A DNA stretch of 64,000 nt from Anaerolineae bacterium (lineage in GTDB: Bacteria > Chloroflexota > Anaerolineae > Aggregatilineales > Phototrophicaceae): contig JALHOR010000015.1 of NCBI GenBank assembly GCA_022842885.1, forward strand, positions 2,219-66,218, written 5' to 3'. Below, piece after piece: positions 1 to 53,385 of this stretch. The notes below the pieces were generated by a model. The model was not told where the DNA came from. It searched no databases and saw nothing but the letters and a program-made list of their open reading frames with translations. Both the position numbers and the translations under genes were made by a program. Numbering within the stretch: position 1 is the stretch's first letter; each line of letters starts with the position of its first letter.

Positions 1-13
1 CTAACCGGAACAT
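1..13 (-). CDS. Possible 5' end of a leftward gene that runs off the window (4 codons only)
   Basis: ATG at 13..11 on the reverse strand, preceded by AGGAGG (23..18 reverse). The gene body lies outside the window, so the product is unknown. Confidence 0.25.
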
Positions 14-204
14 AATGCCTCCTGTCATATATGCTGACCTCTTCACTCATTAGACCGCCAATAACGCGGCAACGTCGCAAGCAAAAAATACGAATTTTTC
101 CACAACCTGCAAAAACCTGTAAATATCAGCGCAGACAGACCATTGTCACGTTATAATAGAAGGGGTTCAATCCGATTAAGCAAGATGAGCAACAAGGACG
201 CATT

Positions 205-789
205 ATGCAGTGTCCCAATTGCCAGCACTGGAACGAAGCTGGCGCACGCTTTTGTGAAGAATGTGGCTTTGAATTGGCACAAGCACCCGAAAAAGAAACG
301 CGGGTAAGCATTCGGGATGAGAATGGGGCTGTGCCATTGAGCGATTTATTGCCCAAACCGCCGCCCGTTCTACCGCCGACACAACCGCCGCTTGGTCTTC
401 CGCCGACGCAACCTGCACCGCGTTCTGCGTCTGCTGTACCGGATGCGGCTGATACGCCCGCTGTGCCGTTTACGGGCGCACGTCTCATCCTCACCAGCAC
501 CGGGTCAATTTTTAAGTTGGGCGAAGTCACCACCATTGGGCGACAAAATCCCACTGTGCAGATTGATTTTGAGGGCTATCCTGATGGCAAGTATGTCAGC
601 GGTCAACATGCCCGCATCCTGAAGATGCAAAATCGTTACTATATCGAAGATTTGGGTAGTTCCAACAATACCTATGTCAATGACATCAAATTGGCAAGCG
701 GGCAAATGGAGCCACTCAAACAAGGGGATAATGTGCGTATTGGCAAGATTGAACTGGTGTTTCATGAACCGCAGGATGACAAAGCATGA
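205..789 (+). CDS. Zinc-ribbon + FHA domain protein (small GarA/OdhI-style FHA effector with an added N-terminal zinc ribbon)
   Basis: N-terminus CPNCQHWNEAGARFCEECG (CxxC-12-CxxC). Pro-rich linker with a PPTQP repeat. C-terminal FHA signature TIGRQNP..VSGQHARI..YYIEDLGSSNNTYVND. The TGA overlaps the next ATG (ATGA at 786-789). Confidence 0.9.
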   Translation: MQCPNCQHWNEAGARFCEECGFELAQAPEKETRVSIRDENGAVPLSDLLPKPPPVLPPTQPPLGLPPTQPAPRSASAVPDAADTPAVPFTGARLILTSTGSIFKLGEVTTIGRQNPTVQIDFEGYPDGKYVSGQHARILKMQNRYYIEDLGSSNNTYVNDIKLASGQMEPLKQGDNVRIGKIELVFHEPQDDKA

Positions 790-2915
790 GCGTATCTGCC
801 AAAATCCCTTGTCCACACTGCCAACAACCGACCACAACCGACAGTGGCTTCTGCGATGAATGCGGCTTAGAACTGGCAACACAGCCCCTTAAACCGGTCA
901 CTGCAGCGCAAATCTTGGCAACTGGGTCATTGGAAAAGCGTACTGATTGTCCATTTTGTGGCTATAAACTGCGCCCCAATGCCAAACACTGCTCCAACTG
1001 TGGCAAAAAATTAGGCACGCGCCCCATTACCGAACCATTGCCCCTCTCGATGGTGCAGCAGGCGCTAGAAGAACCGGGTGTCATGCGCGTGGGGCGCGTC
1101 ATTTCTGACCGCTATGGCTTGGAAAAAATTCTGGGCGAAGGCGGCATGGGACGCGTATGGTTGGCGTATGACCGCAACCTGAGCAAACATATCGTCATCA
1201 AAACGGTGGTCGCACCTGATGAATCGTTACGCGCGGCGCTCAAAAAAGAGGCACAAACGCTCATCAATATTCGGCATCCTAATATTATTTCTGTGCTGGA
1301 TTTCTTCACGATTGAAAATGAATTATGTTATGTCATGGAATATGTGCCGGGTCCCAGTTGGGCAGATGAAATTGAAGAACCGATTGCCCGTAAGTTGGTG
1401 CAACCGCTGCCCGCCGAAGAAGCTCTACGGCGCATCAAGGGGTTGCTGCCCGCCTTTAAATATTTGCACGGATTGAACCCGCCCATCATTTATTGCGATT
1501 TTAAGCCATCTAACGTCAAACGGCTGACACTAGCAAACGGGGATATTGTGGAAGTGCTGCTCGATTTTGGCACTGCCTATACCTATGACCCCAAAGTGCC
1601 GCCCAAGCCAGCGCGTGGCACGCCGGGCTATCATTCGCCACAGGCAAAACACCCCGATTGGCGCGATGATTATTTTACGATTGGGCGGGCAATTGCCGAA
1701 TTGGTGGGCATGGCAGAGGTGCATACCGAAGAAAATCAATATACGCTGACCCCCGCCGATGTATTCCCGTGGTCAAGTTATGATGAATCGCTGCGCTATC
1801 TGGTTGAATGGATGACTGCCCCAGAACGAGAAAATCGTCCGCAAAATGTAGATGAGATTTTGCACGAATTGGATGGCGTCATTGGTTTTGTCAAAGGGCA
1901 AAAACCGGATTTAAAAGCCATGCGCCGCCAACGCCAGCGTGTCAGTTTTGCGGGTGTTACGTTGGATACCATCAAAGCCAATGCCATGACCGGCACCGTG
2001 ACGCATACCATCAAAATTGATTTCCCAGAAGTGCCAGCCGCGAATCCAGCAGCGACGGTGCTGCTCACCGCGCAAGAAGCATATCAACAGCGCGATTATA
2101 CGCGGGCGTTGATACTGGCGAACCAAGCGATTAATAATCATGGCGGCGCTTCAGCATATGCGCTGCGGGCAATGGTCTATAACCAGCAAGGCGATTTGCA
2201 GCAGGCACAAAAAGATTTGGTCATGGCACAGCGCCAAGGCGACCCCAAAGCCCAATGGGAAATGCTCATGGCAGAAGGACAACTCCATGAGAATGCTGGC
2301 AATTTTGAAAAAGCCGCTGATGCCTATCGTAAATTGATGGCACTGCGTCCCGGTGATTATCGCGGGCGCTTGCTGCTGGCAGATTTGTATCGGCGCAGCG
2401 GCAAAGCTGAACCTGCCATCGAAGAATATCAAGCCATTATTCAAGCCAAACCATCCGTCGGTTCGGCATATATTGGCGCGTCTAAGGCATATTTGGCGAG
2501 TAAACAACTGGATAATGCCATCAAAGTGCTGGAAGATGTCAGCAGCCGCAACGCCAGTTATAACGATGTGCTGCTGGAACTCATCGCGCTGTATAACGAA
2601 AAAGCCCAAATAGGTGATGTCAAAAGTCTAGAACAAGCGGCACGGGCGATTGACGTGCTGCAAGAAAATGGCGTCGAATCGCGTATGTATTTCCGGCTGC
2701 GCGGCGAATTTTATTTCACGGCGTATCAACTCGCTCGCAAAACAGGCGCTATTCCTAAATTGGTCTATCCCGATGGCACGATTAACACGTTGGCAGATTT
2801 GGCAAAGATGAATGAAGCCGCGTGGCGCGACTACCTTGCCCGCGATGACGATGCTGACCGCGATAAGATTATCAACACGCGCATTATGGCAGCCCGGACG
2901 TGGGCAGTGATTTGA
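786..2915 (+). CDS. Ser/Thr protein kinase with PknG-like architecture (two zinc ribbons, non-RD kinase domain, TPR repeats)
   Basis: Ribbons CPHCQQ..FCDECG and CPFCGY..HCSNCG. G-loop LGEGGMGRVW, VIK lysine (HIVIKTV), catalytic loop IIYCDFKPSN (Asp codon 1497-1499, no HRD Arg), LLDFGTA, GTPGYHSPQ. The C-terminal ~250 aa are TPR-like helices. Confidence 0.9.
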   Translation: MSVSAKIPCPHCQQPTTTDSGFCDECGLELATQPLKPVTAAQILATGSLEKRTDCPFCGYKLRPNAKHCSNCGKKLGTRPITEPLPLSMVQQALEEPGVMRVGRVISDRYGLEKILGEGGMGRVWLAYDRNLSKHIVIKTVVAPDESLRAALKKEAQTLINIRHPNIISVLDFFTIENELCYVMEYVPGPSWADEIEEPIARKLVQPLPAEEALRRIKGLLPAFKYLHGLNPPIIYCDFKPSNVKRLTLANGDIVEVLLDFGTAYTYDPKVPPKPARGTPGYHSPQAKHPDWRDDYFTIGRAIAELVGMAEVHTEENQYTLTPADVFPWSSYDESLRYLVEWMTAPERENRPQNVDEILHELDGVIGFVKGQKPDLKAMRRQRQRVSFAGVTLDTIKANAMTGTVTHTIKIDFPEVPAANPAATVLLTAQEAYQQRDYTRALILANQAINNHGGASAYALRAMVYNQQGDLQQAQKDLVMAQRQGDPKAQWEMLMAEGQLHENAGNFEKAADAYRKLMALRPGDYRGRLLLADLYRRSGKAEPAIEEYQAIIQAKPSVGSAYIGASKAYLASKQLDNAIKVLEDVSSRNASYNDVLLELIALYNEKAQIGDVKSLEQAARAIDVLQENGVESRMYFRLRGEFYFTAYQLARKTGAIPKLVYPDGTINTLADLAKMNEAAWRDYLARDDDADRDKIINTRIMAARTWAVI

Positions 2916-2957
2916 GTTAAAAGTGATAAGTTAAAAGTTAAAAGTTAAAAGTTAAAA
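2915..2957. repeat. Tandem heptamer repeat (AGTTAAA)n
   Basis: gttaaaagtgataagttaaaagttaaaagttaaaagttaaaag lies directly after the kinase stop. Related tracts are at about 12005-12040 and 50725-50757. Confidence 0.85.
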
Positions 2958-2987
2958 GCAATAACACGATGATGCAGATTAAAAATT

Positions 2988-3079
2988 AGGCTCATGTCCA
3001 GATTGCGTGAAAAGGACGTTGTTGTAGGGTGGAGGCATGCCTCCACCCTACGGAAAATTACTCGTTTTGAACTTGAGCG
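2988..3079 (+). repeat. ~90-bp composite palindromic element, copy 1 (GGCTCATGTCCAGATTGCGTGAAAAG..GTAGGGTGGAGGCATGCCTCCACCCTAC..TTTTGAACTTGAGCGA)
   Basis: 28-bp perfect palindrome at 3023-3050 with conserved flanks. Near-identical copies at 44328-44419, 45449-45537 (inverted) and 53294-53385. Confidence 0.9.
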
Positions 3080-3097
3080 AAAATCAAATTGGGTAAC

Positions 3098-3151
3098 TGT
3101 AGGGGAGCGCCGATGTGCGCTCCTTCTGGCGACCACATTGGGTCGCCCCTA
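3098..3151. repeat. 54-nt element that folds as a perfect three-way junction
   Basis: Closing stem GTAGG/CCTAC. Hairpin GGAGCGC-cgatgt-GCGCTCC and hairpin GGCGACC-acattg-GGTCGCC. A related GGCGACC-tgatgt-GGTCGCC hairpin is at 57712-57731. Confidence 0.8.
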
Positions 3152-3246
3152 CACATAACCTGATTATTTTGTTGAATCACTTTAGGTAGGGCGAGGTATG
3201 CCCCCTTCACAACATATTCTTAGATTTTAGAAATTTAGTAACGACT

Positions 3247-3349
3247 CAGCCCTCATCCCCCAACCCCTTCTCCCACAAGAGAAGGGGTGCAAAAACAAGT
3301 AGTATCTGAAGTCCCTCTCCTTCGGGAGAGGGATTTAGAGGGTGAGGGC
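3247..3349. repeat. G/C-rich hairpin element pair (GGGTGAGGG family) with outer inverted ends
   Basis: Hairpins CCCCTTCTC-ccacaa-GAGAAGGGG (3263-3286) and TCCCTCTCC-ttcg-GGAGAGGGA (3311-3332). Outer arms AGCCCTCA (3247-3254) and TGAGGGCT (3342-3349). Family members at 42384-42422 and 56236-56273. Confidence 0.8.
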
Positions 3350-3434
3350 TAAAGACGACTAGAGTAGTACAAAATTCACTAGATGAAGCACTAAGAAAAG
3401 CTAATCTCTAAAAGCCAACAGCTAAGAGCCAACC

Positions 3435-4679
3435 ATGAGCGCCTTCACTTTTAAAACATACTATAACAAACACATCAGCCCCACCACCAATTCGTTTTGG
3501 GGAGTGGTCTCGGTCACAGCAAATGAAACGGCACAGGCAATGGAAACAGTGGCTGTGACGTTAATATGCGATGTTTCAGGTTCGATGCAGGGCAACAAAT
3601 TTAATGCCATGATTGCCAGCACCGAAGATTTGCTGCGAACAACACCGGACGGCGTGATGTTGGGTGTGGTCGTCTTTGATGACCGCGCTGATGAAGCCGT
3701 GCCACTTGTTCGGTTAGATGCCACCGTTGACCGCGAAAAACTGGTTGACATGTTCCGGCGCAATATGCGGCAAATCAAAATTTTTGGTGGCACTGCCATG
3801 TCTACCGGCATTGATTTGGCGCTGAAACAGCAAGGCAAATTAGGGAATGAAGTTGCCCAATATGGCATTTTCTTATCGGATGGCAATAACACTGAACCCG
3901 AATCTCGCTTAGTGGAAGCGGTGCAAGCCGCCGCCGATACGACGATGCACCTATGCGCTTACGGTTACGGCAGCGATTGGAATCCGACACAATTAACGCA
4001 AATCGCGCAAATCACACAAGGTTGGATGCCCAAAGCCGTGCCTAACCCCGAACATTTACGCCAAGAATTTACGGCGCTCATCGCTCGCATGTCCAGAACT
4101 GTTGCCAGCGATGCCGTTCTGCACTTGTGGACGCCGACAGGCGCTAAAATTCTATCGCTCTCACAAGCCTATCCTGAATGGGTAAAAGGTGAAGCGGCGC
4201 CATTGGGCGATGACCATACTTGGGTTGTCCCGGTTCCGCCCATGTCAGCCGGCGACCACCGCGATTTTGTGGTGCATATCGAATTGGCAGCGGTGGGCGC
4301 TCGTGTGGCAGCATGTCGTCCGACGATGGTCTATGCGTTAGCTGGGCAGCGTGTCGAAGAAAAAGGCGATCAATCCACTTGGATGATTCTGGAACAAACG
4401 CACGATGCCGGACTGTATAATCAGGTAAATCCGGTGGTGGCAGGCTATCTGGGGCAAGGGCAACTGGCACGCGCTACGCAAGCCATGACAGAGGCTCTGG
4501 CAGCCGGGGATGTAAAAACCGCAGAACGGCATCGCACCGAAGCCCTAGAAATTGCCCAAGCCACGGGCAATCGCCCCATGACGCAAATTTTGCAAGACGC
4601 CAGCGGCAGCGAAGTCGCCCGTAAAACTGTTGCGCTTGGCACGTCCACTGTCAGCCTGACCGAAGATGAGAAAAAATAA
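3435..4679 (+). CDS. von Willebrand factor A (vWA) domain protein with a complete MIDAS
   Basis: VTLICDVSGSM (DxSxS), GGTAMSTG (Thr) and FLSDG (Asp). The C-terminal half is beta-rich and ends in a helical tail. Confidence 0.85.
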   Translation: MSAFTFKTYYNKHISPTTNSFWGVVSVTANETAQAMETVAVTLICDVSGSMQGNKFNAMIASTEDLLRTTPDGVMLGVVVFDDRADEAVPLVRLDATVDREKLVDMFRRNMRQIKIFGGTAMSTGIDLALKQQGKLGNEVAQYGIFLSDGNNTEPESRLVEAVQAAADTTMHLCAYGYGSDWNPTQLTQIAQITQGWMPKAVPNPEHLRQEFTALIARMSRTVASDAVLHLWTPTGAKILSLSQAYPEWVKGEAAPLGDDHTWVVPVPPMSAGDHRDFVVHIELAAVGARVAACRPTMVYALAGQRVEEKGDQSTWMILEQTHDAGLYNQVNPVVAGYLGQGQLARATQAMTEALAAGDVKTAERHRTEALEIAQATGNRPMTQILQDASGSEVARKTVALGTSTVSLTEDEKK

Positions 4680-4684
4680 AGCCC

Positions 4685-5110
4685 ATGCCCAATGCTCGTA
4701 AATTCTGTACCCAATGTGGGCATAGCAACCGCCGCACTGCCAAAGTCTGCGTGCAGTGTGGCGCGGCTTTTACGCGCCGTTTATTGGCAGAAACCAGCAA
4801 ATTCTGCCCGGAATGTGGCATCGAAAATAAAATAAGCACCAAATTTTGCCCGCATTGTGGTTATGCCTTAGTGCCAAAACCACCGGAAAAGCTCATTGCG
4901 CCACCCCTGATTCCTAACCCGGCTCCAGCAGTCGCTTTGCCGCCCATCGCTGAACTGCCACCGCCGCCTAATCCAGCTACGCCACCCGTCAGCAACCCAA
5001 CCAACACAACTAGCGAACCCGCTGTACCACTGACGCAGGCGGAAATTCATCTGCTGCGCCAATCCAAAAAACTTGTACTCAAATCGGCTCGCCACCGCAG
5101 GAAATCATAA
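4685..5110 (+). CDS. Double zinc-ribbon protein with a Pro-rich linker and basic tail
   Basis: FCTQCGHSNRRTAKVCVQCG and FCPECGIENKISTKFCPHCG. Pro-rich PPLIPNPAPAVALPPIAELPPPPNPATPP. C-terminus KSARHRRKS. Starts 5 nt after the vWA stop. Confidence 0.8.
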   Translation: MPNARKFCTQCGHSNRRTAKVCVQCGAAFTRRLLAETSKFCPECGIENKISTKFCPHCGYALVPKPPEKLIAPPLIPNPAPAVALPPIAELPPPPNPATPPVSNPTNTTSEPAVPLTQAEIHLLRQSKKLVLKSARHRRKS

Positions 5111-5113
5111 CTT

Positions 5114-6043
5114 ATGCATATCACGCACCATCTCCATGCCTCCGTTGAACATCCTGACCGCTGCGAAGATACGCTTTTGATTCTGAACCAAGCCGGATAC
5201 GCGCCCGTTTTTGCGGTCATTGATGGCATGGGCGGGCATCAACGCACTGCCCCGGATGGCACGCTCATCAGCGGACGCGAAGCCTCCCAAATGGTGAGCA
5301 AAGTGCTGAAAGAATTTTTGGGCGAGTTACCGCTTGATGCCGATGCTTCGGCGGGCAGCGACACAGAACAACGACTAAAAAATGCCATTATTCAGTCCCA
5401 TCGGCGTATCCGGCATGAACTGAACGGCGGCGATATTGGCTTTAGCGAATCGGTTGGCGCTGTCGCTACAGTGGTGGTTGTCTGTGAGAACGGGCAGCGG
5501 CTCCTCACCGCACAAGTCGGCGATACCCGGGGTTATCTTGTTTCCGAAGGCGATTTGATTCAGATGATACCGGATGAAGATAATGTCGAATTTTTGGTGC
5601 AGCGCGGCACTCTCAGCGAAGAAGATGGCGCTGTGATTAGCGATTTAATGAACATTTATGATGGCATCCATGAACCGGATGTTGAAGGCAAAGTTCACAT
5701 AGATGGGCAAGAATTTGACTTATATCTGGCGTGGCGCTGGTTTATGGTCGGCAATTCGGCATTGAGTATTCCGGGTGCCAATGTGGTTATCAGTGCTTTG
5801 GGGGTAGAAGATGAAGACCCGCTGCCCCTCACGTCACGCATTGAAATCAGTGTTGGCGATATGCTGCTGCTCTGTTCGGATGGTGTCTATAAAAATTTAG
5901 CGCACGATGAAATGCTCAAGCACCTAGAAACCAATGAAAATCGGGCAGAGGTGTTGTGCAATGCGGCTTATTTGCGCTCGCAAGATAAGACCAACAAGCG
6001 CATGAATCCCGATGATATTTCGGCGTTGGTGGTGGAATTTTGA
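5114..6043 (+). CDS. PP2C-family Ser/Thr protein phosphatase
   Basis: FAVIDGMGGHQ, AQVGDTRGY and LLLCSDGVY motifs. Starts 3 nt after the preceding stop. Confidence 0.9.
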   Translation: MHITHHLHASVEHPDRCEDTLLILNQAGYAPVFAVIDGMGGHQRTAPDGTLISGREASQMVSKVLKEFLGELPLDADASAGSDTEQRLKNAIIQSHRRIRHELNGGDIGFSESVGAVATVVVVCENGQRLLTAQVGDTRGYLVSEGDLIQMIPDEDNVEFLVQRGTLSEEDGAVISDLMNIYDGIHEPDVEGKVHIDGQEFDLYLAWRWFMVGNSALSIPGANVVISALGVEDEDPLPLTSRIEISVGDMLLLCSDGVYKNLAHDEMLKHLETNENRAEVLCNAAYLRSQDKTNKRMNPDDISALVVEF

Positions 6044-6157
6044 GAGAGCGATTGGCTTTTGGCTGTTAGCTTTGGGTTTTGAGATTGGTGGACACGATTA
6101 CTAATAGGCATCGGATACAAAAATTATTCAGGTCATCAGTCAATATTTCACTCACAT

Positions 6158-7456
6158 TCAGCTAGATTGGCTCGCCAATATAGAACGCAGGTGAGTTCGT
6201 CTGCCCTGAATGTCGAAGCAGTCCTGTTGATTATCGCTCATCAGCCGAGTCGCCAACTTGATTGCCTGTGCTTCTGTGAGTAAGCCATCGTTGATTTCCG
6301 CTTGCAGACTGCGTATCAGCCAGCGGCGAGACTGTGCAGCATAGGCAACAGACGAACTCGCCCACTGAGTATCACCTCCAAAAATGAAGAGCTTGTTTAT
6401 AGGGACTGTGTGAATAAACCGACGCACGAAATGGCTCGTAGTGTACGGGTCTATGCTCCATGCCCAACAGAGGTCAACGTAAACATTGCGGTAATGCTTG
6501 GCAATGGCGGCTAGTTCAGGATCATAGGGATAGGCAATGTGCATCAGTACGAAGCGTGCGTCGGGATAACGCTCCAACAGTCCGCACAAATGACCCGGCT
6601 TGATGCGCTCGACGGGCATCCGATTATTGCCAGCGTAGTAGCCAGTGTGGATTTTGAAGGGCAGATTATGTTCGATGGCAAGCTCAACGCCCCGCGACAA
6701 GCACCAATCCCCCAAACAAAGCTGTTCCTCGACGGTTAGCGTCACACCTCGCAAATATCGGTCAAGTACAGGTGCTACATCGGAGGCGGTGCGTTCTCGC
6801 CACAACAGCGTTCGTTCGTAGGCGTGCTGAGATTTGACGGCAATTGCGTTTGGACCATATTTAGCGAACAGGCTAGCCATTGCAATCTGTAAGGAATTCA
6901 GATCATGAACTTCATAGCCAGTTTCGGCATGAAGCTGAACCACATTGAAGTTAGCGTTGCAGAAATTTACCCACGAAAGGTCATAGAGAAAGAAATCCAC
7001 GCCAGAGCCATCAGGCAAGCAAGCCCACTCGAAATCATCGATCTGCACATGATCGAGGTTGCCTTCATCGCGCAGAATCCGAAGACGCTCGCCCGGTTGT
7101 CGGCGTTGGCGGTTGATTTCCATACTAGCTTCGATTCCCGCCAGCGTGATCTCATCCATGTTATACACATTCTGGGCAGTTAGTCGCACCGCTTCGCCAT
7201 ATCCGGTAAACTGACAGTGTATCCAGAAATCTTTCACAGCGTTCCAGCGCGTTGCAAGGTCGGGATTGCTGCTATCGACCAGTGCGCTAACCGCCCCCTG
7301 TGTGGCTCCTGCGGTAATTAAATCCGCTAGAATGTAATTATCGAACAAATCTGCCAGCACATCTGGACCGGCTTCGACGTATTTCCGTTCTGAAAGGAGA
7401 TGCTCATGGGTATCTATGAGGGGAGTCTGCTGAATATGCTGTGCGAGGTCGGTCAT
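6158..7456 (-). CDS. Amidohydrolase-superfamily metal-dependent hydrolase (TIM barrel)
   Basis: N-terminal LIDTHEHLL metal-binding motif. FVLMHIAYPY and DLCWAW-type later strands. Substrate not assignable. Confidence 0.7.
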   Translation of the reverse strand: MTDLAQHIQQTPLIDTHEHLLSERKYVEAGPDVLADLFDNYILADLITAGATQGAVSALVDSSNPDLATRWNAVKDFWIHCQFTGYGEAVRLTAQNVYNMDEITLAGIEASMEINRQRRQPGERLRILRDEGNLDHVQIDDFEWACLPDGSGVDFFLYDLSWVNFCNANFNVVQLHAETGYEVHDLNSLQIAMASLFAKYGPNAIAVKSQHAYERTLLWRERTASDVAPVLDRYLRGVTLTVEEQLCLGDWCLSRGVELAIEHNLPFKIHTGYYAGNNRMPVERIKPGHLCGLLERYPDARFVLMHIAYPYDPELAAIAKHYRNVYVDLCWAWSIDPYTTSHFVRRFIHTVPINKLFIFGGDTQWASSSVAYAAQSRRWLIRSLQAEINDGLLTEAQAIKLATRLMSDNQQDCFDIQGRRTHLRSILASQSS

Positions 7457-7560
7457 ACAGGTTTTCTCTCTTTTGGGGCGACAGTTTATGCGCTCATTAT
7501 ACGGCTATTTTAGATTGAAGACCGTCAGAGGTGTCTCACTTTATCCAAAACTTACGTAAA

Positions 7561-7788
7561 TTAATTTGTATAACAGTCGGAATCCCGCCAATCGTCTATT
7601 GGTAAGGCGTTCTCAACTTCACGATTCAATTTTTCAAGTTCACCTGCTGCCAATAACCACAACTCTTCTGGCTCAACATCGGTGTTTTGATGGTGCGCGG
7701 TAAGAAGGTTTAACCAACGCACTACTAATGGTAGGTGATTTTCGGGGATGTGTTGCAACGCCTCTATCCCCTGTTGCAAAAGTGTCAT
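7561..7788 (-). CDS. Small hypothetical protein (75 aa, acidic, helical)
   Basis: ORF only. Co-directional, 35 nt downstream of the 4-TM gene. No motif recognised. Confidence 0.4.
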   Translation of the reverse strand: MTLLQQGIEALQHIPENHLPLVVRWLNLLTAHHQNTDVEPEELWLLAAGELEKLNREVENALPIDDWRDSDCYTN

Positions 7789-7823
7789 TTTCGCTTTTCT
7801 TCAAGTTACTCGCTAACAGCCTA

Positions 7824-9230
7824 TCAAAATTCCTGATAGCGATGATACAACCCTAATCCCATCAGCACCAACACCAGCGCATACCCCAACACCCCCAATA
7901 ACCCTTGATTGCGCGGGAGTTCGGTTTGCTGCTGCTGCCAAATCGTATCAAAGACAGCGCGATTAAGCGCCTGAACCTTGAGGATGGCAGCGGCAAAACG
8001 CCCGTAGGCTTCTTCGCTATCGCCTGTATCTACCCCAGTATTCAGTTCAACAGCACCTGCGATGTCGCCTGCATCTAGCAACGTTTTCAAAGATTGATGA
8101 ATGCCCAAATAGTCTAAGAGCGCCAACCGCGCCGTTTCCATAGAAAACGCCTCACCCCCAAAGGTGATGTTGCCCATCAGAGCCACATTAAAATCAGCCG
8201 TGCGGTCATCGCCCAATCCCGCCGCACTCACGACACTGCCTGCCGGAATATCGCCCGCCGTCACAAACGAGCTTTGCAAGCAACCGGGTTCACGGCACAT
8301 CAATTGCTCGACACTGGCAATATTCGCCTCAAAGCGAGCATACCAATCTTCTTTGCGAGCAGTATCAATCACGGCACTACTTTCGGCGCGGTTGGCAAGG
8401 CTGGCGTACACTAGCACCCGCGATGCGCCGCTGATGCTGTAATACGAATCGAGCGTCATGCGCGTTAAGGCATCGGGCAGGGATAATAAATTGAGCAGCA
8501 TCACTGCCAACAACGCAATACTGGCGACCATCGCCAAATCCAGACTGGGCGTTAAATAGCGCCGAACTTTACGCCGCAGCCAAAAAGATGTAAAGACCAA
8601 CGCCAACACCAATATCCCAGCCGGAATTGCCAATAAAAGCACTTGCCCATAAATATCTGTCCGGGCGCGAGTCGCGGCATTCACCATCAATTCAAAATTT
8701 ATGGCTTCCAATTGTTGCAGCGCCGGAATGATGCGATTGCGTAAATTGTCATCGGCAGCAAGGTATTCGCGGCGGGCAATATCGCTGTCGCTACGTCCAT
8801 CGATCAAATTGCTGACGTGCCGCCAAAAACGCGAATAGGTGTAGGTATCGGCAACTGTGAAGGCGGTCGTCTCTTCGGCAGTTTGTAAATTACGCCGCAA
8901 GATAAACATCTCATCCCGATAATCTTCAAAATTGCGAAAAATATCGTTCACTGCCTGTTCAAATAACGGGGTATCGGAGGATAATGCCGTATAATCTGCC
9001 GTCGCTTGGCTGACCCCCGCAATCGCCTGAAGCGCCGATTCCGCAGCATCCACTTTGATGCTGTTCAGCGTCGCAATCTCCTCAAACAAACGGAAAGCAA
9101 CCGTATAGGCATTCACCGCCTGTACCGCTGTCAGCAAAATCAAGACCGATAGCACCACGCCATCCAGAATAAGCCGGACACGGGTGGTCAGATTCCAAGC
9201 TGAGGTGGTGCGCGTCGTCCGTGTGGTCAT
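7824..9230 (-). CDS. Four-TM membrane protein with two large helix-rich extracytoplasmic domains (GlnX-like topology)
   Basis: Hydrophobic segments at about residues 18-40, 196-218, 230-251 and 443-462. Arg-rich N-terminus and an RRKVRRY loop place the 155-aa and 190-aa loops outside the cell. No cytoplasmic output domain. Starts 12 nt after the upstream SBP stop. Confidence 0.75.
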   Translation of the reverse strand: MTTRTTRTTSAWNLTTRVRLILDGVVLSVLILLTAVQAVNAYTVAFRLFEEIATLNSIKVDAAESALQAIAGVSQATADYTALSSDTPLFEQAVNDIFRNFEDYRDEMFILRRNLQTAEETTAFTVADTYTYSRFWRHVSNLIDGRSDSDIARREYLAADDNLRNRIIPALQQLEAINFELMVNAATRARTDIYGQVLLLAIPAGILVLALVFTSFWLRRKVRRYLTPSLDLAMVASIALLAVMLLNLLSLPDALTRMTLDSYYSISGASRVLVYASLANRAESSAVIDTARKEDWYARFEANIASVEQLMCREPGCLQSSFVTAGDIPAGSVVSAAGLGDDRTADFNVALMGNITFGGEAFSMETARLALLDYLGIHQSLKTLLDAGDIAGAVELNTGVDTGDSEEAYGRFAAAILKVQALNRAVFDTIWQQQQTELPRNQGLLGVLGYALVLVLMGLGLYHRYQEF

Positions 9231-9242
9231 GCGTTGTGTCCC

Positions 9243-10322
9243 CTATTTCCCGGTTAAAGCGCGGACTTCTTGCCAAGTGGTGCTGAATAAGGTTTCAATT
9301 GCTGCATCCGATTCCAGAACAAACAATTTGCTCAAAATGGCATCGGGGGGATAAATCGCCGGGTCATTCAGATAATCTTCGTAAATCAAACCTTCATCTA
9401 CAGTCCGCTGATTAGGCGTGCCATACACCGTATAATTGGCAATATCGGCGCTGACCTGTTTATCCAATAGATAATCTATAAACACTTCTGCCAGCGGCTT
9501 ATTTTTCGCGCCCACTGGAATCACCAGACTGGTAATATCGGTCACAGTACCTTCATCGGGGATGGCATAAACAATATTTTGGTCGGGGAATTGGTTTATC
9601 GTCTGGAACACATCACCACTGTATTCAATCACAATATCTACCTCACCTGCCGCCAGCAAATCTTGCCCGGTATCATCGGCGATGACAGTCACATTTTGGC
9701 TGTTTGCCACCAGATAATCGCGGGCTTGTGCCAAATCCGCCGGATTACTGCTGCTCGGATTCAGCCCTAAAAGATTAAGCGCCACGCCCAACATCAAGCG
9801 ATCATAATCAATCCATGCTACCCGCGCAGATGATTCAAACACTTGCTGCCAACTGGTGATAGTTTGCCCCACTCTGTCGCGGTTGTAGCCAATGCCGGTT
9901 GTTCCCCATAAATACGGCACACTGTAGCGATTTTCCGGGTCGAAAGGACGTTTGACAAAATTGGGGTTCATATCGGCAAAATTGGGGATGTTATCAAAAT
10001 TCAGCGGTTGCAGCAGATTCTCATCTAACATGGTTTCCATTGTAAAATTAATCGGGATGACCACATCGTAGCCATTGGGATTGCCTGCCCGCAGTTCATC
10101 TATCAAGATGCTATCTTCTTCAAAAGTATCATACATCACCGTCACGCTGCACAACGCCTCAAAATTGGAAATCGTATCTTCGGCGATGTAGGTTGTCCAG
10201 TTATAGACATGCAGCGTTTGCCCGGCAACATTAACAGGACACGCCCAAAAATCAGTGGTTTGCGCGGCAACGATGCCCGTCAGCCATAGACCGCATAATG
10301 CCAATACCCAGAACCGAGCCAC
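9243..10322 (-). CDS. PotD/PotF-like polyamine-type ABC substrate-binding protein (orphan: no permease or ATPase nearby)
   Basis: GTG start with GGGGGA 6 nt upstream. Signal peptide MARFWVLALCGLWLTGIVAAQ. LHVYNWTTYI, KRPFDPENRYSVPYLWGTTGIGYN and VIPVGAKNKPLA match the E. coli PotD pattern. Confidence 0.85.
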   Translation of the reverse strand: MARFWVLALCGLWLTGIVAAQTTDFWACPVNVAGQTLHVYNWTTYIAEDTISNFEALCSVTVMYDTFEEDSILIDELRAGNPNGYDVVIPINFTMETMLDENLLQPLNFDNIPNFADMNPNFVKRPFDPENRYSVPYLWGTTGIGYNRDRVGQTITSWQQVFESSARVAWIDYDRLMLGVALNLLGLNPSSSNPADLAQARDYLVANSQNVTVIADDTGQDLLAAGEVDIVIEYSGDVFQTINQFPDQNIVYAIPDEGTVTDITSLVIPVGAKNKPLAEVFIDYLLDKQVSADIANYTVYGTPNQRTVDEGLIYEDYLNDPAIYPPDAILSKLFVLESDAAIETLFSTTWQEVRALTGK

Positions 10323-10533
10323 AGGTTTTCCCCCTATGCATCATCATTCTTATGCATGATTGTAACACAAGCAGCCAGCCAACATTGCAAAATCGCAGTA
10401 AAGAAACCCGGCAACCGCAGCACAATGAATATCCATTCCTAAAAATTTTTGAACCACTGAGTCGCTATGAAATACCATCACACCAAGAGATGAAAATTGG
10501 TAATCTGATTGACTGCTAAGTAGCATGTAGTTT

Positions 10534-10567
10534 TTGACTCAGCACTTAGTCCTCAGCACTCAGCACT
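10534..10567 (+). repeat. TTGACTCAGCACTTAGTCCTCAGCACTCAGCACT element, copy 1
   Basis: Near-identical copies at 55131-55165 and 61754-61787. A diverged copy is at 40731-40760. Confidence 0.85.
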
Positions 10568-10630
10568 ATTTTCAAAAGAGACCACCAAGACAATAATTTC
10601 ATCGGGTTACAGAAATCCACCTTCCATTCT

Positions 10631-11761
10631 CTAACGGCTAGGATGCAACTCAATTGGATAATTGGAGAGCAGTTCGCCGCCATGTTCCGTGACGAGATAC
10701 ATATTCTCGATACGAAAACCGCCATTAAGCTCCGATAAATAGACGCCGGGTTCCATCGTCACCACGCTGCCCACTTGCAGAATACCGCCGCGTTCTGGAT
10801 TCATATCCGGTTGTTCATGAGCGCGAAGCCCGATATTATGTCCGGCGTGGTGCGTCAAACCCACTTCGGCAATGGCAGGATGTTGGCGCAAACGAGCATC
10901 CAACCAATGATACAATGCTGTGCCATCCACACCGGGTTTTAGCTGTACCGGAATATCAGCAAAAATGGCTTTGATATGCTCAAACACCGAGTGCTGCAAA
11001 TCGCTAACCATATCACCGACAATAAATACTCGTGATAAGTCTGACCAATAGCCACGATAATTTGTCCACGCATCAATGATGTAGAGTTCGCCTGCTTGGA
11101 TTTGGCGGTCACGCGCAAAACCACCCCCTACCCCACATTGATAATCACCATTGTGATACACCTCTTCGCCTGCGGCGATTACCGTCGCTTGTTTTGCGGC
11201 GGCAAACACATCACATTCGCGCACACCGGGCGCAATCATCTTTTGGGCGGCATCATACGCGGCACAATTAATCGCTACCGCTTTTTTAATCAGTGCCAAT
11301 TCATCGGCATCTTTGCGGATTTGCATCGTTTGTAAAGTTTGGTCTATAGCGACCCATTCGAGTGCGCCGAGTATGGTTGTCGCCGTTTGCAGCAGCAGCA
11401 TGGGTGCAAATTCTGCCTGATAGCCGATGCGTTGGGCAGATTTGCTGGATAATTGTGTGTGGAATAACGCATTGGCACGCGAGAGCAAATCCGGGTGACT
11501 TGTGCCGCCGGAATTATGCGGATATGGCAAAAATTCGTTGACATACGGTTCGCCGCCCACTTCGGGCGCAATCAAAAACGTTGTGCCATCTGCCCCCAAC
11601 CAGAAAACACCGGGCAGAGTCACAGGTAGCACGGGCAATAATTTTCCCGTGAAATAATAAATATCATGTCTATCCGTAATCAGCACCGCATCCAAATGAT
11701 GTTCAGCGAGAATTTGTTGTAACCGTTGTTGACGTGTTAAACAACCATCTTGAGTGAGCAT
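10631..11761 (-). CDS. M24-family Xaa-Pro aminopeptidase / creatinase-like peptidase
   Basis: HHAGHNIGLRAHEQP, TMEPGVY and GGFRIENMYLVTE metal-ligand motifs, plus an N-terminal creatinase-like domain. Confidence 0.85.
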   Translation of the reverse strand: MLTQDGCLTRQQRLQQILAEHHLDAVLITDRHDIYYFTGKLLPVLPVTLPGVFWLGADGTTFLIAPEVGGEPYVNEFLPYPHNSGGTSHPDLLSRANALFHTQLSSKSAQRIGYQAEFAPMLLLQTATTILGALEWVAIDQTLQTMQIRKDADELALIKKAVAINCAAYDAAQKMIAPGVRECDVFAAAKQATVIAAGEEVYHNGDYQCGVGGGFARDRQIQAGELYIIDAWTNYRGYWSDLSRVFIVGDMVSDLQHSVFEHIKAIFADIPVQLKPGVDGTALYHWLDARLRQHPAIAEVGLTHHAGHNIGLRAHEQPDMNPERGGILQVGSVVTMEPGVYLSELNGGFRIENMYLVTEHGGELLSNYPIELHPSR

Positions 11762-11860
11762 ATCATGTATCCTTTTTAGCGTATTAGCTGTTAGCCTTTA
11801 GCCGTTAGCTATTAGCCTTTAGCTGTTAGAGCCTGTTATAGATTTGTCATTTACCGCAAT

Positions 11861-11940
11861 TTTGAACCACAGAGACACCGAGAACACCGAGATTTCACTG
11901 AGAAATAGGCTAAAAAGCTGATAGCTGACTGCTGAAAGCT
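11861..11940 (+). repeat. Composite repeat: TTTGAACCACAGAGACACCGAGAACACCGAG..CACTGAGAAATAGG unit + AGCTGATAGCTGACTGCTGAAAGCT unit
   Basis: The same two units recur at 45378-45427 and 45540-45564. An inverted copy of the first unit is at 51523-51563. Confidence 0.85.
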
Positions 11941-12047
11941 AAACACCTATTGAAAATCACACATGATAACATAAAGAACTATTACATTTACAAAACAGGC
12001 TCTTAGCTTTCATCTTTTAACTTTGCCCTTTTAACTTTGAACCCGCG

Positions 12048-14179: not shown

Positions 14180-17100
14180 TTAACGATAGTGCCGCCGCCG
14201 GATGACCCGGAAAGCGACAACGGAAATTGTCATTACAACAGCGCCAAATGCTGCCAACAAGAGCAGACGCACGCCACTCCACGGTGATTCACCCGTGCGC
14301 GGCAAAGTCGTCACCACGCGGGCAGTCACCGACCGCGCTTGTCCACCGGGGATATTATCAGCGACGATGGTTGCCGTATTATTGACTTCCACCCCGCCGC
14401 GCAGCACAGTCGTAAAGATGCTCATCTGTACAGCTTCGCCCGGTGCTAGGTCGCCCAGTGAGAATGTCACCGTTTGCCCAGAAACACTCGCTGTCCCTTT
14501 GGAAGTAATCGCCCGGTCAACGCGCAGTTCACTCCGCAAGTTATCAGTCACGATAACATTGGTGCCTACGATAGTGCCAATGTTACGTGCCACAATCACC
14601 CATTCAATTTGTTCGCCGTTAACGCCCAATTGTCCGGGCAGCAGCAGCCCAATCTTGCTTAAACCGGGGTCAAAGACCGAAATTTGCGGATTCACTGTCA
14701 CTGAGCCAGCCACCTGTGCGCCCGGCGGTAGCGGTTGACCATCGGGACCAATTTGTGCCGGATTAGCCACATTGCCAGGAGGGGCATCTACCACCGTCAC
14801 GGTGACAGTCGCGGTATCGCACAAGCCGGACAAATCGCAAATCGTGTAAATGAAGCTGAGTGTCCCCACAAAATCTGTCCCCGGTTGCACACGCATTGTG
14901 CCGGTAACTGGATTGATGCTGGCGATGAAACCGTTGATGGGTTCGGTGATATGGATGACACTGCCCGGATTTAGCGCATTTTCAGGGTCAAAATCGTTCA
15001 GCACCACTGGCACTTCAATCGCCTGATTTTTGTTCGTTTGCGCCACATCATCCGCGGCAATCGGCGGCAAATTCCCACCAATCAACACCTGAACAGTGGC
15101 AGCCGCAACCACTGCGCCAGCCCCATCTGAGGCGGTGAAAGTACGGGTGTAATCCGTCGCCGGAGCCACTGCATCGGTGCAGGTAAAGGTCTGTTGAGCG
15201 CCAATCGCTAAGTCAAAAGCCGGAATGATACAGGTTTCTGGCAGACCCGCTGAATTGGTAATGGCAAACGAAATTCCGGTTAGGTTAGTATTGCCATTAT
15301 TGCGGATAGACAGGTTGAAGGTAACGGGCTGACCTGTGCCGACAGTTTGGGTATTGGGTGTCACGCTAACAAATAACGATGGCGCATTGATATTTTGGAC
15401 AATCGTGACGGTCGCCACATTAGACACGTTGGTGGTGATGTCGCGGATGGTATAGGTGAGCGTTACACTGCCCAAAGTTGGCACAGCCGGCGCAGTGTAA
15501 TCAATATTTTGACCATTCACCACGGCTGTCCCTTCGGCTGGAGCCGTAACAATCGTCACAGCGACAGCGCCGGGCGCAAAGGTATCGTTGGCAGTCACAT
15601 TCACCCCCACCGTTGCCCCCGCCGCGACCACCGCCACATCATTGACGGCAACGGGTGCGGGCAGCGGATTCACTGTAATCGTCACAATGGCAATGGCAAC
15701 ATCCGCGCCATTAACAATCTGATAAGTGAACGTATCGGTGCCGCTGAACCCGGCATTGGGCGTATACGTGAACGAGCCATCGTTAGCCGTCGTCAAGATG
15801 CCGTTATCCACGTTATCGGTCACATTCACTGTGACACCAGCCACCGGATAAATATCATTCGCCAAGATACCCGGCGCAGCCGTCAGCAGTGTTTGCCCCT
15901 GATTCACATTATAAGCATCGTTGGTAGCTGCCACGCTCGACAACGGATTGACTGTAATGGTCACTGTCGCCGGGGCGCTGGTTGCTGTACCATCCGTGAC
16001 GGTGTAATTAAATGTGTAAACTCCGGCGAATGTAGCATCGGGCGCGAAGAACAGTGACCCATCAGGATTGACGCCCAACCATGCCGGATTACCCGAATGT
16101 CCCGTAGGGGCAACCACCGTGATGATGGCGTTATCTACATCGGTATCATTAGCAAGAATGCCGGGTGCTGCCACACTTAAGATGGTGGCTTGCGTGATAA
16201 CAAAGGCATCGGCAACGGCGACAGGTGCATCGTTGACTGGCGTTACCGTAATGGTGACAATCGCCGTATCGAGATTTGTTGCCCCATCATCCAATTGATA
16301 GACAAACGTATCTGTGCCGTTGAAATTGGCATTCGGCGTGTAGGTAAACGACCCATTAGGATTCATGACTAATATACCGTTATCCACATTGTCCATGATG
16401 GTGATGGTCACGCCGCCGACCGGCACAGTATCGTTACCGAGAATGCCGGGGGCAGGAACGTTCAATACCGTATCTTCGTTGGTGGTATAAATATCATCAT
16501 TGGCAACCACCACCGGCGGATTGACATTGATAGTGACCGTCGCCACATCGGTTACGCCGCCGCTGGTCACATTGTATTGGAATGTATCAGCACCCAAGAA
16601 ACCAGCATTCGGTGTATAACTGAACGACCCATCAGCGTTGAAAACGAGCGTTCCATTATCTACATTATCTACGAGAGCAACGGTTGCCCCAACTGGGAAT
16701 ACATCATTCGCCAAGTAACCCGGCGCAGCCGTCAGCAGCGTTTGTCCAGAGATAACCGCATAAGTATCATTCACCGCCGCCAGAATATTCACAGTCACGG
16801 TCGCTACATCGTTATTGACGCTATCGGTTGCCGTATACGTGAATGTGACCGGCGTGGTGCTGCCCGCTGTGTGCTGGAAGGTGAAACTGCCATTAGCATT
16901 GAGGGCGAACCCAGTCACACCGATAGGCGGTGTCGCAACAGTGGCGGTCATCCCCGTTGCCGGGAAGTCGTTTAACAAGACACCCTGTGCCACTGGAATA
17001 TTGGCTAGCGAACCTTCAGCAATCAGATAGGTATCATTGACTGCATCCACTGGAACAGCTGCATTATTAAAGGTACAAGTCGCGGTTGCGCCTTCTGCCA

Positions 17101-25300: not shown

Positions 25301-25871
25301 ATATCCCTCCGACGGGACTTGATAACCAGAGCGTGAAGGCTTCATCAACATAAAACCATAATACACCCTATGCGGACTGCCGATAGGATGTTTCAGTAGC
25401 ACATTATTTATCGTAGAAACGATTTTATCAAAACACCAAAGACGGTTCATACCAGCCCCACACTTGCCGGTAAAAGATAAGTCTATTTAGCTTTTATACC
25501 CGCTTATAGTATCCACCCATTTTGCTTACCGTTTCACAAAATTAACTTAACGGTATCATTATTTTAAAGTTGAAATACAATGAATTTTACACCCAATTTG
25601 TTGTTATTTTGTGTAGATTTGGTGCGTTAATTGATTTATATTAAATATCCTTACAAAACCCCTAACATTTTAGGTTGAGTAGTGGCAAAACTTGCAAAAT
25701 TTTGTTAGTGAAACCCATTTTTAACCTTGCAAATCTACTACTCGTCCGTTTTTTCCTTACAAATCCATAACAATGTCAGGGTGTTTTAATATGTCGCAAT
25801 TTGTATCAATTTCTTTATGTGGTTGCAAGAGCGAGATAACCAGTTTTTATATTTCTTAACAACATCCTTCT

Positions 25872-40065: not shown

Positions 40066-40092
40066 GTAGGGGCGAGGCATATCTCGCCCTAC
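40066..40092. repeat. Core-only copy of the GTAGGG..CCCTAC palindrome, sitting between convergent genes
   Basis: gtaggggcgaggcatatctcgccctac followed by gaaaaggattttt. Could act as a bidirectional terminator. Confidence 0.75.
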
Positions 40093-44327: not shown

Positions 44328-44419
44328 GGCTCATGTTCAGAAAATGGGCTATGTAAGGTAGGGTTTCTAAACCCTCCCCTACAATCATCTAATTTTTCAC
44401 TCGTTTTGAACTTGAGCGA
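44328..44419 (+). repeat. ~90-bp composite palindromic element, diverged copy
   Basis: ggctcatgttcag...ggtagggtttctaaaccctcccctac...ttttgaacttgagcga. The flanks match the copies at 2988 and 53294. Confidence 0.8.
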
Positions 44420-53293: not shown

Positions 53294-53385
53294 GGCTCAT
53301 GTTCAGATTGCGTGAAAAGTAGGTTGTTGTAGGGTCGAGGCATGCCTCGACCCTACGAAAAATCATTTGTTTTGAACTTGAGCGA
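53294..53385 (+). repeat. ~90-bp composite palindromic element, copy 4
   Basis: ggctcatgttcagattgcgtgaaaag..gtagggtcgaggcatgcctcgaccctac..ttttgaacttgagcga, starting 1 nt after the isomerase stop. Confidence 0.9.

Follow-up and report, generated by a model that had tools for sequence, protein, structure and literature searches.

PknG is a virulence factor of Mycobacterium tuberculosis and a lever in industrial glutamate production, and ArnA/ArnB is the best-studied archaeal switch operating through Ser/Thr phosphorylation. Here we describe a bacterial locus that encodes counterparts of both. It is situated in a stretch of 64,000 nucleotides (nt) of an Anaerolineae bacterium (GCA_022842885.1, contig JALHOR010000015.1, positions 2,219-66,218, forward strand), referred to below as the window. 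The locus comprises a cassette of five genes, encoding an FHA protein, a PknG-type kinase, a vWA protein, a small zinc-ribbon protein and a PP2C-family phosphatase, together with a nearby pair of putative sensor genes. From sequence comparisons we judge, with moderate confidence, that the cassette supplies the cytoplasmic half of a Ser/Thr-phosphorylation pathway that spans the membrane, in which a GlnX/PknG sensor-kinase arm would be joined to an FHA-vWA switch of the ArnA/ArnB type. Each of these two halves was already known; no published account of their linkage was found.

In the GlnH-GlnX-PknG system, the binding of a ligand in the periplasm is relayed via GlnX to the TPR domain of PknG (PMC6069109, PMC9769921, PMC8546545). 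The locus shares with this system and with its FHA proteins GarA/OdhI (i) a kinase with a zinc module containing two CxxCG motifs, a non-RD motif of the form (Y/F)CDFKP(S/D)N and a PknG-type TPR domain, (ii) a linked GlnX-family protein with four transmembrane (TM) segments, accompanied by an extracellular binding protein, and (iii) an FHA protein in which this domain is most similar to the FHA domain of GarA/OdhI. It differs in several respects. The binding protein is PotF/PotD-like (SBP_bac_8), whereas GlnH is an Asp/Glu-binding lipoprotein of the SBP_bac_3 class. The FHA protein carries an N-terminal zinc ribbon and has no phospho-acceptor of the ETTS type, an additional ribbon is present at the N-terminus of the kinase, the sensor genes lie on the opposite strand, and the Pfam models PknG_rubred and Sensor_actino have no match here. 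Moreover, a dedicated PP2C phosphatase, a ribbon protein and an ArnB-like vWA protein belong to the unit.

The ArnA-ArnB system of the Sulfolobales (with ArnC/ArnD and PP2A; structures 8S05, 5A8J and 5A8I) acts through two complexes. In the loose one, ArnB is unphosphorylated, and its beta-sandwich and C-terminal domain carry the docked zinc finger of ArnA; ArnC then phosphorylates ArnB sequentially, which exposes FHA-binding sites, in a nutrient-dependent manner, and a tight complex results (PMC6509490, PMC12852372). Shared features are an FHA protein with a CxxC-x10-CxxC ribbon and a flexible linker, a vWA domain inserted in a beta-sandwich (eight-stranded in ArnB) and followed by a helix bundle, with an intact MIDAS (metal-ion-dependent adhesion site) and a Thr-rich C-terminus, and the presence of a Ser/Thr kinase and a phosphatase alongside the FHA and vWA proteins; the archaeal system is nutrient-responsive. 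The present locus differs in being bacterial, in having a PknG-type kinase with TPR and ribbons and a phosphatase of the PP2C family in place of PP2A, in bearing ribbons also on the kinase and on the phosphatase-associated protein, and in its linkage to a membrane sensor pair.

Some of the same components are also combined elsewhere. The operon DRA0331-DRA0334 of Deinococcus radiodurans, compared here by its description, encodes a vWA protein, a Ser/Thr protein kinase (STPK), an FHA protein and a PP2C phosphatase, and an antagonism of the FHA protein and the phosphatase on kinase phosphorylation was shown experimentally (bioRxiv 10.64898/2026.01.23.701218). Unlike the kinase described here, that of Deinococcus has C-terminal TM helices and not TPR; its PP2C contains a KI-FHA domain, and no link with GlnX or a solute-binding protein is reported. 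In the TerY-P triad (PMC11090510), a vWA protein, a PP2C phosphatase and a Ser/Thr kinase are likewise encoded together. The kinase of the triad carries a zinc ribbon or OB fold at its C-terminus, whereas that of the cassette has its ribbons at the N-terminus and a PknG TPR domain at the other end; TerY consists of a vWA domain alone, in contrast to the tripartite protein found here; and the triad, unlike the cassette, sits with tellurite-resistance, restriction or defence genes. An earlier reading of the window, made from the sequence only, had held that no characterised system of this composition was known. This is outdated, since each half of the proposed pathway is known (ArnA/ArnB having been studied in the Sulfolobales) and studies of a vWA-STPK-FHA-PP2C operon exist for Deinococcus.

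Composition and conservation of the five-gene cassette

The features of the locus, with the evidence used to define them, are as follows:

205-789, + strand: ArnA-like FHA protein, 194 amino acids (aa) (open reading frame (ORF) call, Pfam)
786-2915, + strand: PknG-type Ser/Thr kinase, 709 aa (ORF call, Pfam)
810-863, + strand: zinc ribbon 1 of the kinase (CxxC motifs)
948-1001, + strand: zinc ribbon 2 of the kinase, with two CxxCG motifs, at the rubredoxin position (motif)
1119-1862, + strand: non-RD catalytic domain of the kinase (Pfam Pkinase)
2013-2672, + strand: PknG-type TPR domain of the kinase (Pfam PknG_TPR)
2916-3434, no strand: intergenic insertion of 519 nt ((GTTAAAA)n repeats and palindromes)
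3435-4679, + strand: ArnB-like tripartite vWA protein, 414 aa (ORF call, Pfam)
4617-4664, + strand: Thr-rich tail of the vWA protein, ARKT.ALGTSTVSLT (conservation)
4685-5110, + strand: small double zinc-ribbon protein, 141 aa (ORF call, Pfam)
5114-6043, + strand: PP2C-family Ser/Thr phosphatase, 309 aa (ORF call, Pfam)
7824-9230, - strand: GlnX-family four-TM signal-transduction membrane protein (NCBIfam, hhalign)
9243-10322, - strand: PotF/PotD-like extracellular solute-binding protein with a signal peptide (Pfam, NCBIfam)

As read from the sequence, the first two genes overlap by ATGA (786-789), and the last two junctions are gaps of 5 nt (4680-4684) and 3 nt (5111-5113). The sequence-only reading had described five co-directional genes with these tight junctions, and its coordinates and all three junctions were found to be correct. 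The same applies to the number of zinc ribbons (a single one in the FHA protein and a pair each in the kinase and the 141-aa protein), to the Pro-rich linkers that follow the ribbons in the FHA and 141-aa proteins, and to the expected domain set, which was returned in full by Pfam (FHA, Pkinase, PknG_TPR, VWA, DZR/Zn_Ribbon_1 and PP2C). Its description of the cassette was thus accurate in coordinates, junctions and motifs, and omitted the 519-nt gap between the kinase and vWA genes.

The conservation of the cassette was analyzed in 22 related loci, obtained by scanning one genome per species and originating from metagenome-assembled genomes (MAGs) of the Aggregatilineales, the Anaerolineae and other Chloroflexota. 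All five genes, in identical order, are present in each of the 17 loci with sufficient flanking sequence, and the 5 shorter loci hold consistent partial sets. The identity to the window proteins amounts to 66-69% for the kinase, 67-74% for the vWA protein (the second most conserved protein of the cassette), 49-59% for the FHA protein and 48-58% for the PP2C phosphatase. Neighbouring genes used as controls (those for an amidohydrolase, a 75-aa ORF, an M24 peptidase, a LacI-like protein and a ROK protein) were retained in only 0-1 of the 22 loci, which indicates that the cassette is held together by selection and not by mere relatedness of the genomes. The synteny check therefore supports the view that the five genes form a conserved functional unit.

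The sequence-only reading had recognised the kinase as PknG-like (zinc module, non-RD catalytic domain, TPR repeats), and its assignment to the PknG type is supported by sequence, hidden Markov model (HMM) and profile comparison. Besides Pkinase (E 2e-25) and DZR, Pfam identified PknG_TPR (PF16918) at residues 410-629 (E 1.4e-11; 44.2 bits against a cutoff of 27). The top five distinct sequences matched in the PDB are all PknG (2pzi, E 2e-21; 7mxb, 7mxj, 7q52 and 4y0x), the best being 2pzi of M. tuberculosis, aligned over residues 100-625 (kinase and TPR), followed by PknG of Corynebacterium glutamicum. The hhalign comparison with actinobacterial PknG (probability 100%, E 2.5e-38, 588 columns) begins at residue 44, in the region of ribbon 2, which faces the actinobacterial rubredoxin. 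This ribbon (CPFCG...CSNCG, residues 55-72) is located approximately 40 residues ahead of the kinase domain. Two CxxCG motifs, or a match to PF16919, serve as the criterion for the rubredoxin module of PknG (PMC8546545, Lisa et al.); PF16919 (PknG_rubred) found no match in the kinase, and the rubredoxin feature is recognised by its motifs only.

Within the catalytic domain, the motifs YCDFKPSN (paralleled by FCDFKPDN in PknG of Actinophytocola), DFG and GTPGYHSPQ are conserved among the orthologues, and the catalytic residues are kept in 18 of 18. A threonine ahead of this domain, T39 in KP.TAAQ, is invariant among the orthologues. PknG homologues have previously been noted in one Chloroflexi and one cyanobacterial genome (PMC8546545), so that the occurrence of a PknG-type kinase in the Chloroflexota is not new in itself.

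The vWA protein, which matches VWA families of Pfam, is predicted to have the fold of ArnB, i.e. a vWA domain, combined with a beta-sandwich and with a bundle of helices at the C-terminus. In a phmmer search of the PDB the sole strong match was 4FX5 of Catenulispora (E 1e-21), which spans all three domains (residues 31-392). In the AlphaFold2 (AF2) model (predicted local distance difference test score, pLDDT, 79; predicted TM-score, pTM, 0.72), two strands (residues 4-29) precede the vWA domain (38-219), which is followed by further strands (222-321) and by helices (325-401). Foldseek placed 4FX5 at the top (TM-score 0.83); ArnB in the ArnAB complex 8S05 (TM-score 0.64-0.69, E 3.6e-20) and its paralogue vWA2 (5A8J, E 4.6e-18) were also matched, with Sec23/24 lower in the list. 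This tripartite fold has been described for ArnB and vWA2, including its occurrence in 4FX5 (PMC6509490, Hoffmann et al.).

The complete MIDAS reported earlier for this protein (DVSGSM, GGT and SDG) is present; its residues (D46-x-S48-x-S50, T120 and D149) are kept in 20-21 of 21 orthologues and are invariant across the alignment of Chloroflexota and Actinobacteria. The C-terminal tail, which is predicted to be disordered, is conserved in 20-21 of 21 orthologues and contains three T-x-x-[LV] motifs, and actinobacterial vWA tails bear a comparable ...LDTRS[ST]KT[VM]RV motif. By comparison with the C-terminal Ser/Thr sites of ArnB, the tail threonines are candidate phospho-acceptors. The MIDAS-dependent vWA assembly envisaged in the sequence-only reading is unsupported; the features of the protein point instead to a tripartite scaffold of the ArnB type with an invariant Thr-rich tail.

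With a threshold of E <= 1e-30, an exhaustive profile search revealed 545 clusters (50% identity) of this vWA family, and the sampled members belong to several actinobacterial families and to Candidatus Dormibacteraeota. Two members (P0272 and P0275) are natural fusions, single chains made up of an ArnB-like vWA, a pair of zinc ribbons, a Pro-rich linker and an FHA domain. Three others (P0235, P0244 and P0249) have long hydrophobic N-terminal extensions rich in Arg, Leu and Ala, whose reality is doubtful. The sole distant match of the vWA protein in a word index (P0111), a vWA protein with a short kinase beside dnaB and ribosomal genes, was rejected because of its different architecture.

The FHA protein (Pfam FHA, E 1e-16, and Zn_Ribbon_1) is composed of a ribbon, CPNC-x10-CEEC, at residues 3-20 (nt 211-264), a Pro-rich linker and an FHA domain at residues 109-180 (nt 529-744). 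The residues predicted to bind phosphothreonine (G112, R113, S132, H135, N154 and T156) are kept in 17 of 17 orthologues. The best PDB matches of the FHA domain are GarA/OdhI (E 4e-6), and ArnA (5a8i, 8s05_C) aligns over residues 2-163, i.e. ribbon, linker and FHA domain (E 1e-3). On this sequence evidence, its architecture (zinc ribbon, linker, FHA) is that of ArnA. The segment ETRVSIR of the window protein, which resembles the ETTSVFR of GarA, was considered as a self-inhibitory site and rejected: its Thr is not conserved, and the alignment of orthologues has no conserved Thr (ETTS-like motif) ahead of the FHA domain. Since the linker has no conserved Thr, a self-inhibitory switch of the GarA type is unlikely, and a GarA/OdhI-like mechanism is not borne out.

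The 141-aa protein matches DZR/Zn_Ribbon_1 of Pfam and, in hhalign, the N-terminus of the actinobacterial DZR-PP2C protein (probability 94.1%, E 1e-7). PRK14559 of NCBIfam, a model of a fused ribbon-PP2C phosphatase, matches the 141-aa protein with its N-terminus and the product of the next gene with its PP2C part. The ribbon module and the phosphatase are thus split in the window, as in 22 of 22 related loci. Orthologues of the 141-aa protein contain three ribbons and a C-terminal motif, GEPAPY[IL][ST]..E[LF]..LR. The first ribbon has apparently been deleted from the window copy, which starts at ribbon 2, 5 nt after the vWA stop codon.

The PP2C protein (Pfam PP2C_2/PP2C; NCBIfam Stp1/IreP family, E 1e-24) is most similar, among PDB entries, to PstP and related phosphatases, and is predicted to be active: its metal-binding residues D19, D37, D137, D256, D300 and D301 are kept in 22 of 22 orthologues. 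A ribbon subtype, [FY]C[DE]xCG, occurs on the kinase and FHA protein of the window as well as on actinobacterial PknG, PP2C and FHA proteins, and the zinc finger of ArnA is docked on ArnB in PDB 8S05. By analogy, these two observations give real support to the suggestion, made in the sequence-only reading, that the shared zinc ribbons may serve as a common docking module.

Linked putative sensor genes and actinobacterial clusters

The GlnX-like protein was matched by the GlnX family model of NCBIfam (NF058618) with an E-value of 1.6e-23 and 83.5 bits, the curated cutoff being 250. In hhalign, it was aligned with actinobacterial GlnX over 267 columns (probability 94.6%, E 6.5e-8; controls <=0.4%), and its four TM segments match the positions of those in actinobacterial GlnX. 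The AF2 model (pLDDT 88) consists of helices throughout and places two helical bundles outside the cytoplasm, in agreement with published GlnX (PMC9769921). A Foldseek search of the PDB with this model gave nothing significant (best E-value 0.05), and no GlnX entry was present among the matches listed.

The second gene of the pair encodes a binding protein related to SBP_bac_8 (Pfam, E 2e-25), PotF (NCBIfam, E 3e-59) and PotD (E 1e-48), the latter two below their cutoffs. It does not belong to the GlnH class, as hhalign gave a probability of 1% with actinobacterial GlnH (SBP_bac_3). No permease or ATPase gene accompanies the binding-protein gene in the window, and its product is a candidate ligand sensor partnering the GlnX-like protein. 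In the related loci, the GlnX-like gene adjoins the cassette in 17 cases and the solute-binding protein gene in 15, in two arrangements: in one of them downstream of the PP2C gene, in the other upstream of, and divergent from, the FHA gene.

4FX5 has abundant homologues. Five of them were looked up, from Catenulispora, Actinophytocola, Kutzneria and two metagenomic contigs, and all are encoded in clusters of one order: GlnX (Sensor_actino), SBP_bac_3, a protein of approximately 410 aa, PknG (rubredoxin/kinase/TPR), a zinc ribbon-PP2C protein, a vWA protein (VWA_3_C) and an FHA protein. In Nonomuraea all seven genes are contiguous as well, with the sensor pair relocated to the opposite end. Thus, in 6 of 6 actinobacterial loci, glnX, glnH, pknG and the genes for the ribbon-PP2C, ArnB-like vWA and ribbon-FHA proteins are found together, in two arrangements. 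With 408 bits, the sensor of Actinophytocola exceeds the cutoff of the GlnX-family model (250), and the actinobacterial FHA proteins begin with zinc ribbons followed by a Pro-rich linker. The family of the structural-genomics protein 4FX5 (Caci_2163) is part of this cluster.

The components shared with the Chloroflexota locus, with their hhalign probabilities, are GlnX (94.6%), PknG (100%), PP2C (96.5%), the ribbon N-terminus (94.1%), vWA (99.8%) and ribbon-FHA (99.5%). The differences concern the gene order, the ribbon module (part of the PP2C protein in actinobacteria, encoded by its own gene here), the class of the binding protein (SBP_bac_3 there, SBP_bac_8 here) and the coiled-coil protein of approximately 410 aa, which is lacking here; tblastn and hmmsearch detected no counterpart of its gene in the window or in the 22 related loci. 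We found no publication that describes the extended actinobacterial cluster as a unit. The sequence-only reading had correctly delimited the five genes of the module and had overlooked both the homologous seven-gene actinobacterial cluster and the GlnX-like/solute-binding pair, which stands upstream in the pathway proposed below.

The actinobacterial protein of approximately 410 aa (363-417 aa) is encoded directly upstream of pknG in 6 of 6 loci, and between glnH and pknG in 5 of these. It is soluble, without a TM segment or a confident Pfam or NCBIfam match, apart from a faint ZapB match in locus L028. The positions of its gene are:

L025: 3414-4646
L026: 3465-4691
L027: 5141-6394
L028: 2684-3775
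L029: 5111-6364
L031: 4715-5863

Proposed signalling pathway and competing explanations

The pathway proposed here builds on the gene content, the synteny, the homology of all parts, the folds and the motif conservation described above. The PotF-like protein would bind a ligand outside the cell, probably an amine of polyamine-like type or a nutrient, and signal via the four-TM GlnX-family protein. The PknG-type kinase would be controlled through its TPR domain, as has been proposed for actinobacterial GlnH-GlnX-PknG, and would phosphorylate Thr residues in the C-terminal tail and helix bundle of the vWA protein, and possibly its own T39. The ArnA-like protein, pre-docked on the vWA protein by its zinc ribbon, would then clamp it with the FHA domain, turning a loose complex into a tight one as in ArnAB. 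The PP2C phosphatase would reset the switch, probably after recruitment to the vWA scaffold by the separate ribbon protein, and the output may be metabolic or transcriptional control. A direct partnership of the vWA and FHA proteins is indicated by the existence of the vWA-ribbon-FHA fusions (P0272 and P0275). The idea, already put forward in the sequence-only reading, that a kinase/phosphatase pair and an FHA reader act on the vWA protein would fit, by analogy, the studied ArnA/ArnB/ArnC/PP2A system (PMC6509490, PMC12852372).

Several observations weigh against this pathway. The GlnX-like protein remains below the curated cutoff of the GlnX family, and Pfam gave no match for it, Sensor_actino included. 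Because the class of the binding protein differs from that of GlnH, the coupling of the sensor pair to the cassette is deduced from adjacency only; in the window, moreover, the sensor genes are on the opposite strand, with the amidohydrolase gene and the 75-aa ORF between them and the cassette. With regard to the switch, the sequence similarity of the FHA protein to ArnA is weak (E about 1e-3), and the vWA protein and ArnB share 14-15% identity in the structural alignment. Finally, the repeat-filled gap could uncouple the transcription of the FHA-kinase pair from that of the vWA-ribbon-PP2C trio.

The same components might serve metabolic control of the GarA/OdhI type. In that case the ribbon-FHA protein would be the main kinase substrate and would directly inhibit 2-oxoglutarate dehydrogenase, glutamate dehydrogenase and similar metabolic enzymes, the vWA protein being an accessory scaffold. 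The kinase and membrane sensor are indeed of the PknG/GlnX type, and the solved structures nearest to the FHA domain are those of GarA/OdhI, the known PknG substrates. We nevertheless consider this explanation unlikely: the N-terminal region and linker of the FHA protein have no conserved Thr or ETTS-like motif, its architecture is ArnA-like, the vWA protein is strongly conserved (67-74% identity) and has an invariant Thr-rich tail, and the vWA-ribbon-FHA fusions indicate that the vWA and FHA proteins are direct partners. A different proposal, which concerns the output and not the switch, is that a FraH-like FHA protein controls septal or membrane structures as part of a filament or cell-envelope module. 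The Aggregatilineales and Anaerolineae, relatives that carry the cassette, are filamentous, and the order of zinc ribbon, Pro-rich region and FHA domain presumably matches that of cyanobacterial FraH. DRA0333, the FHA protein of the Deinococcus vWA-STPK-FHA-PP2C operon, has also been described as a FraH orthologue (bioRxiv 10.64898/2026.01.23.701218). We see only a slim chance that this proposal is correct, given that in neither the window nor the related loci is the cassette linked to genes for envelope, septum or division, and that its conserved partners are a nutrient-type sensor pair.

A role as a TerY-P-like conflict or anti-phage module, triggering defence on infection, appears highly improbable. 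The gene content does overlap the triad of vWA, PP2C and Ser/Thr kinase (PMC11090510), relatives of the vWA protein carry the JGI label 'YegL', and the kinase domain matches generic defence-kinase models of PADLOC. These generic matches and a marginal one of 13.8 bits for the PP2C protein were the only PADLOC results; the FHA and ribbon proteins had no match, nor had the vWA protein (at E <= 0.01), in a PADLOC copy whose TerY-P model content was unverified. As nothing TerY-like was returned, the defence reading was set aside. The kinase, with N-terminal ribbons and a C-terminal PknG TPR domain, and the tripartite ArnB-like vWA protein also differ from their TerY-P counterparts. No effector, nuclease or mobility genes are located nearby, the neighbours being genes for the amidohydrolase, the GlnX-like and solute-binding proteins, a peptidase and regulators, and the high conservation across the order (66-74% identity for kinase and vWA protein), with stable chromosomal partners, likewise argues against defence. 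A tblastn search with the vWA protein gave 0 matches in 50,697 phage records and a single match in 72,556 plasmid records, which is to a replicon of 11.85 Mb. The conflict-module alternative mentioned in the sequence-only reading is disfavoured by these results.

The replicon in question (NZ_LT559118.1 in PLSDB; locus L031) is designated 'plasmid I' of Nonomuraea gerenzanensis and has 10 annotated features in PLSDB. Since it is evidently chromosome-sized, the 'plasmid' matches to this locus are no evidence of mobility.

Under the preferred explanation, a GlnX/PknG arm coupled to an ArnA/ArnB-type switch, the Chloroflexota locus and the six actinobacterial loci suggest that the PknG/GlnX and ArnAB systems are parts of one conserved pathway. 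If this is true, switches of the ArnAB type gain a candidate upstream sensor (binding protein, GlnX and PknG), PknG gains a second, widespread class of substrate or partner, the recurring zinc ribbons would represent a docking tag for the vWA scaffold, on the basis of PDB 8S05, and 4FX5, a structural-genomics structure of 2012, acquires a genomic context. In the literature searched, we found nothing that connects PknG/GlnX with a module of the vWA or ArnAB type: papers on the PknG operon mention glnX and glnH only, and those on ArnAB cite 4FX5 solely as a structural relative.

More tentatively, and with considerable doubt, the FHA-vWA switch, with its Sec23/24-like core, might be an ancestral and widespread partner of PknG in the Terrabacteria (Actinomycetota, Chloroflexota and probably Dormibacterota), continuous with the crenarchaeal Arn network. 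Were this the case, an ancient nutrient-sensing cascade would be common to Bacteria and Archaea, the ribbon-tagged kinase, phosphatase and FHA reader would alternate at one docking site of the vWA protein, and mycobacteria and corynebacteria would have, in their GarA/OdhI branch, a derived simplification.

Intergenic repeats and other genes of the window

The gap between the kinase and vWA genes contains (GTTAAAA)n repeats, inverted repeats and several palindromes, including a GTAGGG...CCCTAC element resembling repetitive extragenic palindromic (REP) sequences. The spacing of these two genes is 519 nt in the window versus about 14-271 nt in the related loci, and in this genome the insertion may cause the cassette to be transcribed in two parts. 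Scans of positions 1-6400 of the window for promoters and terminators revealed nothing above shuffled sequence, and an Rfam search of positions 1-12000, which include the gap, gave no match.

The REP-like palindrome family (e.g. GTAGGGTGGAGGCATGCCTCCACCCTAC) is represented by 4 copies in the window, compared with 0.03 expected. The repeat scan located them at:

3024-3051, inside the 519-nt insertion
40066-40092
44358-44382
53329-53356

An insert of approximately 3.4 kb, containing several ORFs, is present between the vWA and ribbon-protein genes in two contigs of one MAG (L004, positions 2670-5990, and L017, positions 2510-5830), which shows that the cassette can be interrupted at this site. 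In the window, an Amidohydro_2 gene (6158-7456, - strand) and the 75-aa ORF (7561-7788, - strand) are located between the PP2C and GlnX-like genes. This arrangement is specific to this genome, neither of the two having been found in any of the 22 related loci.

Among the remaining genes of the window, a giant ORF (14180-25450, - strand) encodes a protein of 3756 aa with Big_9, cadherin-like, DUF11, malectin and Big_5 domains, which is probably a surface adhesin. The ORF at 25950-29183 (- strand) encodes an unusually large response regulator of 1077 aa, which unites GAF domains with a receiver domain and a DNA-binding Trans_reg_C domain of the OmpR type.

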